In this document: positions 5,894 through 12,250 of the stretch, in pieces
Layout: each line of letters opens with the position of its first letter
Numbering within the stretch: the stretch's first letter is position 1
Origin: an uncultured Actinomycetota bacterium
GTDB taxonomy: Bacteria > Actinomycetota > Actinomycetes > Actinomycetales > Cellulomonadaceae
Assembly (NCBI GenBank): GCA_963753425.1
Contig: CAVWCB010000004.1
Location: 28,801 to 92,800, forward strand
Direction: 5' to 3'
Length of the DNA stretch: 64,000 nt
The notes under the pieces: generated by a model
Databases searched by the model: none
Seen by the model: only the letters and a program-made list of their open reading frames with translations
What the model was told of the DNA's origin: nothing
Made by a program: the position numbers and the translations under genes

Positions 5894-7096
5894 TCAGACG
5901 CGGTCGAGGACCGGGGTGACCCCGTCCCGCGCGCGGCGCCCGTCGAGCACCTGTGCGGCGACGACCACCACCAGACCCGCGAGGGGCACGACGAGCAGGC
6001 CGACCCGCAGCGAGGTCTCGTCGGCGATCAGGCCGACGACGGGCGGCGAGAGCAGGAACCCGACCCGCATGAGCCAGCCCAGGACGGCCAGGCCGGTACC
6101 CGCGCGCAGGCCGGGCAGGCTGTCGGCGCCGTGCATGGCGGACGGGACCAGGGTCGCGATGCCGAACCCGGCGGCTGCGAAGCCTGCGATCGTGCCGGGG
6201 ACGGTCGGGAACGCGAGCGCGAGGCCCATGCCGACGGCGACGAGCGCGCCGCCGGTGCGGGCCATCGCCCGGTGCCCGAACCGGTCGACCATCCGGTCGC
6301 CGATCGAGCGGCCGACGAACTGCGCGCCCGTGAGCGCGACGAACCCGAACGCGGCGATCGACAGCGGGGCGCCGAGCGAGCCGGAGAGGTAGACGGCACC
6401 CCACGTGCTCCCGGAGTCCTCCACGATCGAGCCGGCGGCGGCGATCAGGACGAGCGCGGCCATGCTCCCGACGAGGGTCAGCGACCAGCCGCTGCGACCT
6501 GCGTGCTCGGCGGAGACGGGCCGATCCTCTTCGTCGTGACCCGGGAGCAGGTACCGGTAGGCCACGAGGACGACGACCGAGAACAGTGCCGCCGAGATGC
6601 CGAGGTGCAGACCGCGCGACATCCCCACGGCGACCGCGGCCGCCCCCATGAGGCCACCCGTGACGGCGCCGATGCTCCAGACCGCGTGGAACGAGTTGAG
6701 GATCGAGCGGCCGTACCGGCGTTGCACGCGCAGGCCGTGGGCGTTCTGCGCGACGTCCGTGATGGCGTCCATCGAGCCGGCCGCGAACAGGCCGAGAGCC
6801 AGCAGCAACCAGGTGCTCGAGACGCCGGCCGCGAGGACGCCGAGGGCGGTCAGGATCGTGCCGGCGACCGCGACGCGCGACGAGCGGAACCGGCGGATGA
6901 GCACGCCCGCGGCGAGGCCGGCCGCGAGGGCGCCGACCGGGAAGGCGGCGATGGCGAGGCCGTACTGGGCGTTGCTCAGGCCGAGATCGGCCTTGATCGT
7001 GGGGTACTCGGGGAACAGGTTGGCGAAGATCGCGCCGTTGGTGAAGAACAGGGCGGCGACGGCGACGCGGGCGCGGGTGTTCTGGTCCCTAGGCAA
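5894..7096 (-). CDS. MFS transporter
   Basis: About 12 TM segments; DAITDVAQNAHG and GDRMVDRFG motifs. Confidence 0.85.
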   Translation of the reverse strand: MPRDQNTRARVAVAALFFTNGAIFANLFPEYPTIKADLGLSNAQYGLAIAAFPVGALAAGLAAGVLIRRFRSSRVAVAGTILTALGVLAAGVSSTWLLLALGLFAAGSMDAITDVAQNAHGLRVQRRYGRSILNSFHAVWSIGAVTGGLMGAAAVAVGMSRGLHLGISAALFSVVVLVAYRYLLPGHDEEDRPVSAEHAGRSGWSLTLVGSMAALVLIAAAGSIVEDSGSTWGAVYLSGSLGAPLSIAAFGFVALTGAQFVGRSIGDRMVDRFGHRAMARTGGALVAVGMGLALAFPTVPGTIAGFAAAGFGIATLVPSAMHGADSLPGLRAGTGLAVLGWLMRVGFLLSPPVVGLIADETSLRVGLLVVPLAGLVVVVAAQVLDGRRARDGVTPVLDRV

Positions 7097-7847
7097 CGTG
7101 CACCTCGAGTCCCGCGCGTCGGACCTCGTCGAGGGTGTCCCGCGGGGTCTCGTCGTCGGTCACCAGCACGTCGAAGTCGGTGAGCGGGCAGACGACGGCC
7201 AGGGCGGTGCGGACGAACTTGGCGGCCTCGCCGACCAGGATCGTGCGCCGCGCGCTGGCCATCGCGGCGCGTTTGGTCGCCGCCTCGACGTCGTCGTACG
7301 CGGTGACGCCGTCGGCCATCGACAGGCCGCAGCAGCTGATGATCGCGGTGTCGACGCGCAGCGCCCGCAGCGAGGCCTCGGTCATCGGGCCGACGAGCGA
7401 CCCCTCACCGAAGCGCGACGTACCGCCGGGGACCTTGAGGGTCGTCTCGGGGCTCGCGGACAGGACGTGCGCGGCAGGCAGCGAGAGCGGGATGACCGTG
7501 AGCCTGCGGTGCTGGAGCCGTCGCGCGATGGCCAGCCCTGTGGTGCCGCTGTCGAGGATGACGGCCTCGCCGTCGGCGATCAGCCCCACGGTCAGGGCGG
7601 CGATGGCCTCCTTGGCCTTGGACGACTCGACCTCGCGCAGCGCGAACGGCAGCTCCTCGCCCCGCAGCAGCAGGCTGACGGCCCCGCCGTGCACCCGTCG
7701 CAGGGCGCCGGCCGACGCGAGAGCGTCCAGGTCGCGGCGGACGGTGACCTCGGAGGTGTCCAGCTCGACGGCGAGGTCCGCGACCTCGAGCCGCTCGGTC
7801 TCGCGCAGACGCTGCACGATGAGGTGCTGGCGGGTGGGGCTGTCCAT
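7089..7847 (-). CDS. DeoR/GlpR family regulator
   Basis: SEVTVRRDLDAL...RRVHGGA and ILDSGTT motifs. Confidence 0.9.
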   Translation of the reverse strand: MDSPTRQHLIVQRLRETERLEVADLAVELDTSEVTVRRDLDALASAGALRRVHGGAVSLLLRGEELPFALREVESSKAKEAIAALTVGLIADGEAVILDSGTTGLAIARRLQHRRLTVIPLSLPAAHVLSASPETTLKVPGGTSRFGEGSLVGPMTEASLRALRVDTAIISCCGLSMADGVTAYDDVEAATKRAAMASARRTILVGEAAKFVRTALAVVCPLTDFDVLVTDDETPRDTLDEVRRAGLEVHVA

Positions 7848-7965
7848 GGGGCAAACATACGACACGACGTTACGAATGAAAGAATCGGGTGTGTGTTTCA
7901 CCGTCGAGCACCCGGCGTCGACGACGAATAGTCTCGACTCATCCACCCGAGAGGACACCACCGCT

Positions 7966-8898
7966 GTGAAGACCTTCACCCTGCCCGGCACCGACATGGT
8001 CGTCCCGAACGTCGTCCTGGGCCTCATGCGCATCGCGGACAAGTCCGACGACGAGGTCCGCGAGCTGGTCGGTGCGGCGCGCGACTCCGGGATCGCGTTC
8101 CTCGACCACGCCGACGTCTACGGCAACGAGCTGCACGGGTGCGAGCGTCGGTTCGCGGAAGCGCTCCAGCTCACTCCCGCCGACCGCGCCGAGCTGATCA
8201 TCCAGACGAAGGCGGGCATCGTGCCGAGCGGGCCGTACTTCGACTTCTCCTACGAGCACATCGTCTCGTCGGTCGAGGGCTCGCTCGCGGCGTTGCAGAC
8301 CGACTACATCGACATCCTGCTGCTGCACCGCCCCGACGCGCTGGTCGAGCCGGACGAGGTCGCCCGCGCGTTCGACGAGCTCGAGGCGTCGGGCAAGGTC
8401 CGCGCGTTCGGCGTCTCCAACCAGACGCCGGGCCAGATCGAGCTGCTGAAGCGATCCGTGACACAGCCTCTGGTGGCCAACCAGCTGCAGCTCTCCATCA
8501 CGCACGCGCCCCTGATCGCTCAGGGGGTCGCGTCGAACATGCTGGGCGAGGACCAGTCGATCTCCCGTGACAGCGGCATCGTCGACTACTGCCGCCTGCA
8601 CGACATCACGATCCAGGCGTGGTCCCCGTTCCAGGCGGGCTTCTTCACGGGCGTCTTCCTCGACTCCGCGGACTACCCCGAGCTCAACGCCGTCATCGAC
8701 CGGCTCGCCGCCGCGTACGACGTCCCGCCGATCGCGATCGCGACCGCGTGGATCACGCGTCACCCGGCGCAGATGCAGGTGGTCCTGGGCACGACGAGCC
8801 CCTCGCGGGTGCAGGGCGCCGCGCTCGGCTCCGAGATCCCGCTGACCCGGGCCGAGTGGTACGAGCTGTTCCGCGCGGCGGGGCACATCGTCCCGTAG
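7966..8898 (+). CDS. Aldo/keto reductase (YdhF-like)
   Basis: DHADVYG, IQTKAG, LLLHRPD and GVSN motifs; GTG start after GAGGA. Confidence 0.9.
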   Translation: MKTFTLPGTDMVVPNVVLGLMRIADKSDDEVRELVGAARDSGIAFLDHADVYGNELHGCERRFAEALQLTPADRAELIIQTKAGIVPSGPYFDFSYEHIVSSVEGSLAALQTDYIDILLLHRPDALVEPDEVARAFDELEASGKVRAFGVSNQTPGQIELLKRSVTQPLVANQLQLSITHAPLIAQGVASNMLGEDQSISRDSGIVDYCRLHDITIQAWSPFQAGFFTGVFLDSADYPELNAVIDRLAAAYDVPPIAIATAWITRHPAQMQVVLGTTSPSRVQGAALGSEIPLTRAEWYELFRAAGHIVP

Positions 8899-9016
8899 GT
8901 GGGTCGTCGCGGCAGCGACGCTCGGTCGGGTGATGGAGCACCGGCCCTCCACCGCGGGGGAGAGGGATCGATACGCTGGGGAATTCCTGGCAGTCGATCG
9001 GCGCGAAGGGCAGTCC

Positions 9017-9313
9017 ATGTCGTTCCAGGCGTACCTCGACACCATCGAGGACAAGACCGGCCTGACCCCCCAGCAGTTCGTCGATCTCGCGCACGAGCGC
9101 GGCTACGACGAGCCGTCGGTGAAGTCAGGCGTCATCGTCGCGTGGCTCAAGGACGACTACGACCTGGGCCGCGGCCACGCGATGTCGCTCGTCCACGTGA
9201 TCAAGAACGGGCCGGCGATCAGCACCAAGCACGTCGGTTCGGACGGCACCCATCGGGACGAGTCCGAGACCCTCTGGCTGGCGGGCAAGGCGACGAACCC
9301 CGCTCGCACCTAG
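9017..9313 (+). CDS. DUF4287-like protein
   Basis: MSFQAYLDTIEDKTG...WLKDDYDLGRGHAM. Confidence 0.75.
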   Translation: MSFQAYLDTIEDKTGLTPQQFVDLAHERGYDEPSVKSGVIVAWLKDDYDLGRGHAMSLVHVIKNGPAISTKHVGSDGTHRDESETLWLAGKATNPART

Positions 9314-9365
9314 GCGAGCCCCGCGGCCACGCCCCGGGACGCGGTGAGCCGGTACGGTTGCGACC

Positions 9366-9974
9366 GTGCCTCAGCTCGCGACCGGACCCGTGCGCCTCGT
9401 GCGTGCGTCCGTCGTCGCGCTCATCACGGTGGCGCTGGCCCTGCTCGCGCACGTGCTCGGCGGCGGAGACGTCCCGCGCGCGATCGTGCTCGTGCCGCTG
9501 GCCGCGGTGGTGCTCGCCGCAGCCGTGCCGTTCAGCGGGCGACGGATCGGGCCGCTCGGTGCCGTGGTGCTGGTCGGCGTCGGTCAGCTGGCACTGCACC
9601 ACGCGTTCGGCCTGCTCGGCACCATGGGCTGTGAACCCGCCGCCGAGATGGTCGGGCACTCGCACACGGTCCAGCTCGCCTGCACCGCGGCGCCCGAGCA
9701 CATGGCGAGCTCGGGCGGAGCCGGGATGTTCGCGCTGCACGTCGTCGCGACCTTGGTGACCGCCCTGCTGATCGCCGGAACCGACCGAGCGATGTCGTGG
9801 ATCTCGGCCTGGTTGCGTCCGCTCGTCGCGCTGCTCGCACCGGTCGTCCTGCCGGCGTCGGCTCCCCTGCCCGTCCGCGTCGAGACCTCCCGGGCGGTGG
9901 GTCGGCGCGACGTCGGCGTCGTCCCCCTGCGCGGACCGCCGACGGTGATCGCGCACCTCACGCTGGCGGCCTGA
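9366..9974 (+). CDS. Membrane protein with His/Met/Cys-rich loop and C-terminal RGPP motif (candidate regulatory leader ORF)
   Basis: About 4 TM segments; QLALHHAF, GCEPAAEMVGHSHTVQLAC, EHMASSGGAGMFALH; RGPP codons at 9930-9941. Confidence 0.75.
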   Translation: MPQLATGPVRLVRASVVALITVALALLAHVLGGGDVPRAIVLVPLAAVVLAAAVPFSGRRIGPLGAVVLVGVGQLALHHAFGLLGTMGCEPAAEMVGHSHTVQLACTAAPEHMASSGGAGMFALHVVATLVTALLIAGTDRAMSWISAWLRPLVALLAPVVLPASAPLPVRVETSRAVGRRDVGVVPLRGPPTVIAHLTLAA

Positions 9975-10051
9975 CCTCTCGGAGGACGGGTCGGCCCGGT
10001 CGTGCGCGCCTGCACACCCTCGTCGACCACCCCTTCCTCAGGAGTACTCCC

Positions 10052-10807
10052 ATGTTCACGATCCACCGCACCACCCGCGTCGCCGCGGTCCTCGTCACCG
10101 GTCTCGCGCTCGTCGCGCTCCCGGCCGCGGCCGCCTCGGCTCACGTGCACATCGACCCCGCCGAGACCGCCGCCGGGGGCTTCACCGTCCTCACGGTCCG
10201 GGTCCCGAACGAGTCGTCCACCGCCGGGACCAGCACGGTCGTCGTCGACCTGCCGACCGACCACCCGCTGCTCTCGGTCTCGACCAAGCCGGTCCCGGGG
10301 TGGACCGCGACCGTCGCCAAGGCCCCGCTGCCGGCGCCGGTCGACTTCTACGGCACGACCCTCACGGAGGCCCCCGCGACCGTGACCTGGACCGCGACGC
10401 CCGGCAACGAGATCGCGGACGGCCAGTTCCAGGAGTTCGAGATGTCGGTCGGACCGCTGCCGGACGCGGGCACCGAGCTGGTGCTGCCCACGCACCAGAC
10501 CTACACCGACGGCACGGTGGTGGACTGGGCCGACCCGACGCCCGCCAGCGGCGAGGAGCCCGAGCACCCGGCACCGGTGTTCACGACGACCGCCGCGGAG
10601 GCCGAGGGTCACGACCACGCCTCGTCCGACGAGGCGACGCCGAGCGACGGGCCGACCGTCTCGGCTGAGGCGACCACGACGGCAGCCGCGACGCAGGACC
10701 AGTCCGACACCGTGGCGCGCACGCTCGCGATCGTCGCCGTCGCACTCGGCGCCGGGGCCCTCGTGGTCGCGCTCGTCTCGGCACGCCGCCGCCGGACGGA
10801 CGCCTGA
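10052..10807 (+). CDS. ycnI: YcnI family copper-binding membrane-anchored protein
   Basis: Signal peptide ASA/HVHI; RVPNES, PVPGW and QTYTDGTVVDW motifs; C-terminal TM. Confidence 0.85.
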   Translation: MFTIHRTTRVAAVLVTGLALVALPAAAASAHVHIDPAETAAGGFTVLTVRVPNESSTAGTSTVVVDLPTDHPLLSVSTKPVPGWTATVAKAPLPAPVDFYGTTLTEAPATVTWTATPGNEIADGQFQEFEMSVGPLPDAGTELVLPTHQTYTDGTVVDWADPTPASGEEPEHPAPVFTTTAAEAEGHDHASSDEATPSDGPTVSAEATTTAAATQDQSDTVARTLAIVAVALGAGALVVALVSARRRRTDA

Positions 10808-11427
10808 TGTCGGCCGGGTCGGTGCGCGCGCGGCGGGGTGTCCTCGCAGCTCTCGTGATCGGTGGGGTCCTCTGGGCCGGGGGCGTGTTCGGCGCGACCG
10901 CGGCGCAGGCCCACAACGTGCTGCGCAGCACCGACCCGGCGGACGGGTCGACCGTCGCGACGGCGCCCGAGCAGATCACGCTCACGTTCGACGAGCCCGC
11001 CCTCGCGCTGGGCACCCAGATCGAGGTGCGCAGCCCGGACGGGACGCTGGTGAGCGCCGGCGATCCGGTGCTCGTCGACGACACCGTGTCCGAGAAGCTC
11101 GGCGGCGACCTGCCGGCGGGCGACTACACGGTCGCGTGGCGCGTGACGTCGGCGGACGGCCACCCGATCACCGGCCAGTTCACCTTCACGACGACCACCG
11201 CGACGACGATCGGCGATGCGGCGGTGCCGGACTCGACGCCGTCGCCCAGCCCGTCCATGGCGGCGAGGGGCGACCAGGAGAGCAGCGGCAGCAGCACCGC
11301 GCCGGTGATCGTCGGCGGGATCGCCGTCGTCCTGGTCGGCGCGATCTCGTGGCTGCTCTGGCGGCGTCGCCGACCCCGGGAACGCAGGCTGACGCGTCAG
11401 CCGAGGAAGAGCTGTCCGCAGAGCTGA
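10807..11427 (+). CDS. copC: CopC copper-binding protein, membrane anchored
   Basis: AQA/HNVLRSTDPADG, YTVAWRVTSADGHP; start overlaps the ycnI stop. Confidence 0.9.
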   Translation: MSAGSVRARRGVLAALVIGGVLWAGGVFGATAAQAHNVLRSTDPADGSTVATAPEQITLTFDEPALALGTQIEVRSPDGTLVSAGDPVLVDDTVSEKLGGDLPAGDYTVAWRVTSADGHPITGQFTFTTTTATTIGDAAVPDSTPSPSPSMAARGDQESSGSSTAPVIVGGIAVVLVGAISWLLWRRRRPRERRLTRQPRKSCPQS

Positions 11428-12250
11428 CCGTTCGGGCCGAGAGTGCAGCCGACGCCGATCTGGGTGAAGTCGGGGTTGAGGATGTTGGCGCGGTGGCCGT
11501 CCGAGCCCATCCAGCCCGCGACGGCCGACGCGGCATCGCTGTACCCGAGGATCAGGTTCTCGCCGATGCTGTGCTGCATGCCGCAGGCGGCGATGACCGG
11601 GTCGAGCGCGTCGTGCTCGAAGCGGCCCTCGGCGACCAGGACCGCCGTGCGCTGGTTCGACTGGTCGGTGAGGCACGAGTTCACGGACAGGGGCGCGAGA
11701 CCGGCCTGGGTGCGTTCCGCGTTGGTGAGCGCCACGATCTGGTCGGTCAACGCGCCCTGTGGCTGGGGCACGACGACCGGCGCGGCGGGAGGTGCGGCCG
11801 GCGGAGCGCCGGGCGCCACGGGGGCGGCGCCGACGACAGGCGGTTCGGCCTTCGCGCTCGGGCTGGCGGTCGGACGCGATGACGGGCTGGGTGCTCCCGT
11901 CGGACGTCGTCCGCCGTCGGCGTCGCCGAAGGGTCCGCGGAGCGGGCGGCGGTGGCGGTCGGCGTCGAGAAGCCGAGCGTGTCGGCCTGGGGCGCGGGGC
12001 CGTCCTTCGGGTTGTCGACGGCGCTCGTCGAGGCGCCGTCTCGCTGGGACAGGCCGGCCGGCACGGCGATGATCGCGAGGGCGAAGGCGCTCAGCGCGAC
12101 GATCCGGGCGACCCGCCAGAACCTCGACCCGGTCGTGCGGCTGTGCTGGGGTCCCGGGAAGGGGCCCACCGGGACGTAGGTGGTCCGCGGGACCGGCTGG
12201 GTGCGGGCCCCGGGGGTCGTGGGTTCGTCAGAAGGGGACGAAGTGGACAT
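11397..12250 (-). CDS. CAP/SCP domain protein (frameshift near 11880-11900)
   Basis: N-terminal TM; LTNAERTQAGLAPL, GENL and WMGSDGHRANILNP motifs. Confidence 0.8.

Follow-up and report, generated by a model that had tools for sequence, protein, structure and literature searches.

A four-helix membrane leader ending in RGPP ahead of ycnI-copC in an uncultured Cellulomonadaceae bacterium, a predicted arrest protein and candidate copper sensor

The locus described here lies in a stretch of 64,000 nucleotides (nt), called the window below, from an uncultured Actinomycetota bacterium of the family Cellulomonadaceae (GenBank assembly GCA_963753425.1, contig CAVWCB010000004.1, positions 28,801 to 92,800 of the forward strand). 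All coordinates refer to the window. A short membrane-protein gene, here called the leader gene, is followed on the same strand by ycnI and copC, and an earlier note made from the sequence had proposed that it is a copper-sensing ribosome-arrest leader for these two genes. The features of the unit are listed here, with the Shine-Dalgarno sequence abbreviated as SD and amino acids as aa.

9353-9358 (+), TACGGT, a -10-like hexamer (TANNNT) ending 7 nt ahead of the GTG start
9366-9974 (+), leader gene from open reading frame (ORF) and translation, GTG start at 9366, TGA stop at 9972-9974, 202 aa
9930-9941 (+), arrest-motif codons R189-G190-P191-P192, the predicted arrest site, 10 codons ahead of the stop
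9942-9974 (+), post-arrest tail TVIAHLTLAA and stop codon
9975-10051 (+), spacer between leader and ycnI, 77 nt, with GC-rich inner hairpins and a C-rich stretch
9975-9978 (+), CCTC, anti-SD-like, directly after the leader stop
9981-9985 (+), GGAGG in the spacer
10040-10044 (+), AGGAG, SD of ycnI
10052-10807 (+), ycnI (DUF1775), ATG at 10052, Pfam PF07987, E 2.2e-44
10807-11427 (+), copC, Pfam PF04234, E 7.5e-27, start overlapping the ycnI stop by 1 nt

The sequence, the Pfam matches and an AlphaFold2 model agree with the earlier description of a 202-aa ORF with about four transmembrane segments, 77 nt ahead of ycnI-copC. The model (AlphaFold2, family alignment) has four helices at residues 8-31, 39-56, 63-85 and 118-157 and coil at residues 158-202, with a mean predicted local distance difference test score (pLDDT) of 84.6 and a predicted template modelling score of 0.71; the helices are long and hydrophobic with pLDDT >90. 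RGPP is present in the translation at residues 189-192, 10 codons before the stop, as the earlier note had it. The motifs that it listed as likely metal ligands are all there as well, namely LAH (H29), QLALHH (Q74, H78), C89-x4-EMVGHSH-x5-C106, EHM and GMFALH (M121, H125). The codons of the putative ligands lie at 9450-9452 (H29), 9597-9599 (H78), 9657-9659 (H98), 9726-9728 (M121) and 9738-9740 (H125). C89 and C106 are the sole cysteines, and no CXXC occurs in the protein. No family was matched in a Pfam scan with E up to 1 or in an NCBIfam scan. In structure searches with the model, the best PDB match had an E of 0.94 (Foldseek), a wide VIA-align search returned only generic helical bundles (Z up to 6.2), and the ESM Atlas returned only unannotated actinobacterial membrane proteins. 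The modelled fold resembles no solved structure beyond generic helical bundles.

Both downstream proteins carry a signal peptide, a C-terminal membrane anchor and a predicted mature N-terminal histidine (ASA|HVH in YcnI, AQA|HNV in CopC). An N-terminal histidine is typical of the Cu(II) sites of YcnI and CopC. The NCBIfam copper_CopC match of copC (E 1.2e-19, 70.7 bits) is under the 95-bit cutoff of the model. The leader-ycnI-copC unit is without copD.

Relatives of the leader were collected using a word-indexed search, which gave 31 sequences, mostly from named Cellulomonas and so placing the source organism in that genus, and an exhaustive HMMER search with E up to 0.001, which gave 530 cluster representatives. 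Six-frame searches found the gene in 62 of the 121 genomes sampled from the same family and, at the level of the class, in at least 166 of the 401 sampled. RGPP or RAPP occurs within the last 40 residues of 170 of 179 relatives (168 RGPP, 2 RAPP); the remaining nine seem to be incomplete proteins or calls with a frame shift. All 76 six-frame genome matches carry the motif (75 RGPP, 1 RAPP). The R[AG]PP conservation that the earlier note had proposed as a check is thus confirmed, and it is far beyond chance. A genome-wide count of RGPP and RAPP in the source genome was set aside as too noisy, since the crude gene calls place starts too far upstream. The fixed distance between the motif and the stop codon that was expected along with it was not found, as the tail after RGPP varies from 0 to 23 residues in an alignment of 144 sequences and from 3 to 27 residues in the 76 genome matches. 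In that alignment, with a mean column identity of 19%, H29, H78, R189, P191 and P192 are invariant, and R13, G33, G34, P37, Q74, H98, M121, H125, A128, P163 and G190 are nearly so (H125 in 143/144, M121 in 137/144). RGPP is the only invariant element of an otherwise drifting, disordered family tail. All the listed ligand motifs are present in the leader, but not all of them hold across the family: C89, H100 and C106 are retained in just 41-58% of the sequences (C89 and C106 in 53-58%), and the EHM triplet sits in a variable loop. The source genome encodes a second small protein (118 aa, hydrophobic near its N terminus) in which six residues follow RGPP; the gene is outside the window (genome G000, contig C12:20132-20488; locus L095:833-1189).

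Gene linkage was counted by Pfam scanning of the first well-supported downstream gene at 68 family loci. YcnI, CopC or PCuAC is encoded directly downstream at 52 of these, which agrees with the earlier expectation that homologs sit upstream of copper genes. The counts by downstream gene were as follows.

DUF1775/YcnI, 22 of 68 loci
CopC, 19
PCuAC, 11
PepSY_TM, 6
Extracytoplasmic function (ECF) sigma factor, 6
Thioredoxin/DsbA, 1-2

In the closest relatives (64-73% identity), the order is aldo-keto reductase, DUF4287, leader, and then ycnI-copC or copC alone. Two of the closest have an extra gene between DUF4287 and the leader, and because the insertion falls at this point the leader travels with the copper genes and not with its upstream neighbour. 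Conservation and linkage together support the proposal of a conserved polytopic membrane leader ahead of ycnI/copC.

The same scaffold also occurs elsewhere. Four-helix RGPP paralogs were found upstream of thioredoxin, ECF sigma factor and PepSY_TM genes, at loci L074 and L078-L090 in Streptomyces-like genomes and at L040, L046-L050, L052, L055, L059, L067 and L068, with up to seven matches of the scaffold in single genomes. This suggests that one sensor module is reused for different outputs, and the downstream gene classes agree with those in PMC12992588. Side-by-side family members, each with a separate ycnI or copC gene downstream, were also seen on opposite strands (L032), in divergent arrangement (L043) and in tandem (L021/L022/L025/L027); in the tandem loci the second copy is of 178 aa and lies about 0.9 kb downstream.

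No leader of this kind was known in Actinobacteria to the writer of the earlier note, and this statement does not stand: the class was described by Fujiwara et al. (EMBO J 2025, December 2025; PMC12992588). In that work RGPP and RAPP were the most robust and most avoided stalling tetrapeptides, with RGPP the most avoided tetrapeptide in bacterial proteomes, and both are concentrated towards the C-terminal ends of small proteins that are secreted or lie in the membrane. It reports 2,570 RGPP ORFs upstream of genes annotated as "YcnI family protein", 2,491 of them predicted to be transmembrane. The Streptomyces lividans protein SLIV_18480 (four helices, 284 aa, RGPP with R273, YcnI downstream) stalls ribosomes in vitro and in vivo in an arginine-dependent manner, with 1.8 units for the wild type versus 19 for R273A, and an AlphaFold3 prediction pointed to a copper site made up of three histidines and a methionine (PMC12992588). 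The table of the same paper includes WP_175349189.1 of Cellulomonas humilata, which is our relative P0027 and is 48-50% identical to the leader protein. The protein sequence given in the supplement of PMC12992588 served to recognise SLIV_18480-type orthologs in Streptomyces-like genomes, and these orthologs match the leader family profile with E 1.9e-15 and 3e-12; a profile built from Cellulomonas only matches one such ortholog with an hhalign probability of 96% and E 4e-9. Besides this homology, the leader shares with the SLIV_18480 type a length below 300 aa, four helices, a C-terminal RGPP, a same-strand YcnI gene next, and the conserved His/His/His/Met residues, the published His3-Met site matching the invariant H29 and H78 and the nearly invariant H125 and M121 of the leader family. 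The leader differs in being shorter (202 vs 284 aa), in a much shorter outer loop between helices 3 and 4, and in the residues before the motif (VVPLRGPP vs HTVVRRGPP in SLIV_18480). By these sequence comparisons, the leader is a member of the published superfamily of RGPP-bearing transmembrane arrest proteins that precede YcnI-type copper genes in Actinomycetota, and the interpretation in the earlier note was right in kind. Membership of the family together with arrest is considered highly likely.

The motif might instead serve the mature protein, for example as a binding motif, with no ribosome stalling in this organism. For this speaks that arrest needs upstream context and is weak on E. 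coli ribosomes for the Streptomyces proteins (PMC12992588). All seven of the seven S. lividans RAPP/RGPP proteins tested in that work nevertheless stalled on Gram-positive ribosomes, and a mature function is hard to fit with the reported avoidance of RGPP and with its place as the sole invariant element of a freely drifting, disordered tail, so that the chance of this explanation is very slight.

Among the better-known systems, CruR (Bp2923) of Bordetella pertussis is a DUF2946 protein that heads a copper-acquisition operon; the proposal is that its nascent chain detects extracytoplasmic copper, and copper relieves the arrest, after which Rho terminates transcription (Roy et al. 2022; PMC9426467). 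The leader resembles CruR in its place upstream of copper genes and in the R-x-P-P arrest motif at its end. CruR is a secreted protein with a signal peptide and CXXC, whereas the leader has four helices with His/Met ligands and no Pfam match. CutF of Rhodobacter capsulatus, to which the leader had also been likened, is an exported protein that senses copper while still nascent and, through a stall at its proline-rich C terminus, controls the copper-related gene that follows. Ribosomes stall there in response to copper and thereby open a stem-loop that covers the ribosome-binding site of cutO (Ozturk et al., bioRxiv 10.1101/2025.02.05.636593). CutF is DUF2946-like and not four-helix, and stall-dependent unmasking of this kind was not seen when the leader region was folded. 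The leader itself has no Pfam DUF2946 match, no signal-peptide architecture and no CXXC/CXXXC, and the likeness to DUF2946-type CruR and CutF drawn in the earlier note thus concerns the proposed mechanism and not the family. ApdA, ApdP and SecM have, like the leader, a localisation signal followed by an RAPP/RAGP-type core for stalling at the peptidyl-transferase centre. Those proteins precede secDF, secA or yidC and sense translocation, whereas the leader precedes genes for copper proteins and has conserved metal-ligand residues.

The N terminus of the leader is placed inside the cell because positive residues R10/R13 precede helix 1, R59/R60 follow helix 2 and R141 follows the membrane part of helix 4. 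In this topology model, H29 (helix 1), Q74 and H78 (helix 3), and M121 and H125 (helix 4) would lie in the outer third of the membrane and H98 in the outer loop. The conserved ligands are thus predicted to form an outward-facing site in the same compartment as YcnI and CopC, with copper the most likely metal. The distance that is fixed in the family is the one from RGPP to the membrane domain and helix 4, not the one to the stop codon. Over 143 aligned sequences the tether from H125 to Arg189 ranges from 61 to 80 residues and measures 64-66 in 113 of them; in the same set the helix 3-4 loop has between 33 and 85 residues. Among the 76 class-wide genome matches, 69 have a tether of 63-71 residues. 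The tether is about 65 residues in the leader vs about 85, counted by hand, in the SLIV_18480-type ortholog at L074. By analogy with toeprints of RAPP peptides and CruR (PMC12992588), Pro191 (9936-9938) would be in the P site and Pro192 (9939-9941) in the A site at the predicted stall. With Pro191 at the peptidyl-transferase centre, about 35-40 residues would occupy the exit tunnel, the end of helix 4 (about residue 157) would be at the tunnel exit, and the entire bundle would already be outside the ribosome. As modelled, this geometry suits a coupling of bundle closure to tension on the nascent chain.

A fixed tether is also what a force sensor of another kind would need, one in which the stall reports membrane-insertion capacity (Sec/YidC load) as in MifM, SecM and ApdA and insertion of helix 4 releases the arrest; the arrest peptides of the RAPP type known so far act as monitoring substrates that are released by force (PMC7897499, PMC10987492). 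This is considered improbable for the leader. SecM, MifM, VemP, ApdA and ApdP are linked to sec or yidC genes downstream, and the genes after the leader are ycnI and copC, which encode copper proteins. The conserved His, Met and Gln residues inside the helices would be left without a role, and with about 53 residues from the end of the membrane part of helix 4 to the P site, helix 4 should already be inserted at the stall.

No SD was found ahead of the GTG start of the leader. GGTAC(G/C)GT, which contains the -10-like hexamer, is kept at the same offset in five close orthologs. When family start codons were picked solely by distance from the conserved R13, a TANNNT starting at -13/-12 was present in 47 of 72 family members, including 34 of 34 from the Cellulomonadaceae sample, and an SD-like sequence in only seven of the 72; in the source genome this hexamer pattern has a background frequency of 0.07-0.3% at the same offset. 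A scan for the sigma-70 promoter consensus gave no match. The sequencing runs listed for this stretch were DNA runs of soil metagenomes with small shares, and no RNA run was among them. Judged by its sequence, the leader is probably translated from a leaderless mRNA that starts at the start codon and is made from a housekeeping-type, constitutive-looking TACGGT promoter.

From these data the following model was drawn up. A leaderless transcript would be made from the TACGGT promoter, and the first ~157 residues of the leader would insert as a four-helix bundle with the N terminus inside. H29, Q74/H78, M121/H125 and H98 would build the outward-facing metal site, most likely for copper. Peptide-bond formation would stall at R189-G190-P191 with Pro192-tRNA in the A site, and at the stall the fixed tether of about 65 residues from H125 would link the external bundle to the peptidyl-transferase centre. 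Metal-dependent locking of the bundle would alter the pull on the nascent chain and hence the lifetime of the stall, and the residence of the ribosome on the last 12 codons would set ycnI-copC expression, either through transcription polarity as in CruR or through whether the ribosome reaches the stop that abuts the anti-SD-like CCTC. The model builds on family membership, motif invariance, the topology model, gene linkage and published arrest by a homolog; copper as the ligand, the force coupling, and the downstream mechanism and its sign are the parts that we infer. For the full copper-sensing cis-regulatory model of the leader-ycnI-copC unit, the probability is put at roughly 0.6 to 0.7.

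Several points weigh against it. The arrest evidence is from a Streptomyces homolog, not from the leader gene or any Cellulomonas member, and copper binding and cis control of ycnI are carried over to the leader family by analogy. Copper sensing, regulation of the downstream genes and how it would work are named as open questions in PMC12992588. The predicted ligand geometry is drawn from topology reasoning. The RNA gives no sign of a switch: the fold of 9900-10075 is no more stable than that of shuffled sequence (z -0.07), and RNAalifold on six orthologs gave a positive covariation term with just three covarying pairs. About 100 nt separate the stall site from the ycnI SD, and masking of the stalled ribosome in the folds gave no consistent change of SD accessibility in the six close orthologs and no trend over the 68 family loci (10 up, 5 down).

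Unmasking of the ycnI SD by a stalled ribosome is therefore unsupported by these folds. An anti-SD-like CCTC or CTCC does stand directly after the stop in five of the six close orthologs, and in single-sequence folds it often pairs with the SD region of ycnI. A stalled ribosome cannot reach this element because, with 9936-9938 in the P site, it covers the mRNA only to about 9951. Unmasking by a terminating ribosome was also considered: SD accessibility went up in four of the six close orthologs when such a ribosome was masked, but there was no family-wide trend over the 68 loci (8 up, 5 down), and this candidate was likewise set aside. A consensus scan for intrinsic terminators found none, and an Rfam scan of 9100-10300 gave no match. 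The SecM/CutF picture of a stalled ribosome melting the ribosome-binding site of the next gene cannot simply be assumed here. Two routes from the stall to ycnI may be envisaged. By analogy with CruR, the stalled ribosome would block Rho and its release would shut the operon; in a coupling route, only a released ribosome would reach the stop and free the SD. Copper would act in opposite directions in the two, a choice that the sequence by itself does not settle.

The end of the leader protein was also compared across the family. The C terminus is -LAA, like that of the ssrA tag (codons L-A-A-stop at 9963-9974). This end occurs in 25 of 294 distinct family sequences and in 10 of 150 clusters at 50% identity, compared with 3 of 1721 control genes of the source genome and with 0.76% expected from tail composition, and an ALAA end is seen in SLIV_18480-type proteins too. 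The -LAA end could serve as a degron once the product is released, or it could be a side effect of pairing in the RNA, between GGCGG and the two proline codons of the motif.

The leader might instead be mainly a stable working part of the copper pathway, such as a membrane acceptor or conduit for copper from YcnI/CopC, in which the RGPP pause is programmed and signal-independent and either aids membrane insertion and assembly or holds the mRNA at the membrane for synthesis of YcnI and CopC there. The helical core is strongly conserved and confidently modelled, the unit is without copD, and no RNA switch was detectable by RNAalifold or in the ribosome-masking folds, all of which would fit such a protein. 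The same scaffold ahead of PepSY_TM, ECF sigma factor and thioredoxin genes fits a sensor module better than a transport subunit, though, and the tail ends in the degradation-tag-like -LAA; copper can also modulate an RAPP stall, as in CruR (PMC9426467). On balance this explanation is considered unlikely.

The copper-sensing model may be taken one step further. The family would then be a length-calibrated mechanical sensor, in which the fixed tether couples metal-dependent closure to stall release, the leaderless constitutive mRNA leaves all control post-transcriptional, and the -LAA end of a minority of members, the leader among them, marks the product for ClpXP. This extended form is considered less likely than not and is offered tentatively. 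In term searches of PMC12992588, the fixed tether, the predicted leaderless mRNA and the -LAA end were not found as topics.

Upstream of the leader, window positions 7089-9313 hold a DeoR-family regulator gene on the - strand, the aldo-keto reductase gene and the DUF4287 gene. The latter two recur in close relatives, and the DeoR gene is present in one of them (L093). The DeoR protein shows no sign of copper regulation because its domain is of the sugar-type DeoRC. At the other end of the unit, copC and a convergent gene share 31 nt at their 3' ends (11397-11427).

11397-11819 (-), CAP-domain gene (cysteine-rich secretory protein family), convergent with copC

With the class already described in print, this case is of value for its comparative data. 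The fixed tether, the leaderless signature, the lack of support for stall-driven SD unmasking and the minority -LAA ends are added here, and these additions are modest but testable. Within the sequence, the four-helix RGPP leader is the only visible putative copper-responsive element of these ycnI-copC units. If the extended form of the model is true, only the nascent chain would matter in members whose -LAA product is marked for ClpXP. The fixed tether and the leaderless signature are concrete, testable constraints on the question, raised in PMC12992588, of how an extracellular ligand would change a stall inside the ribosome.

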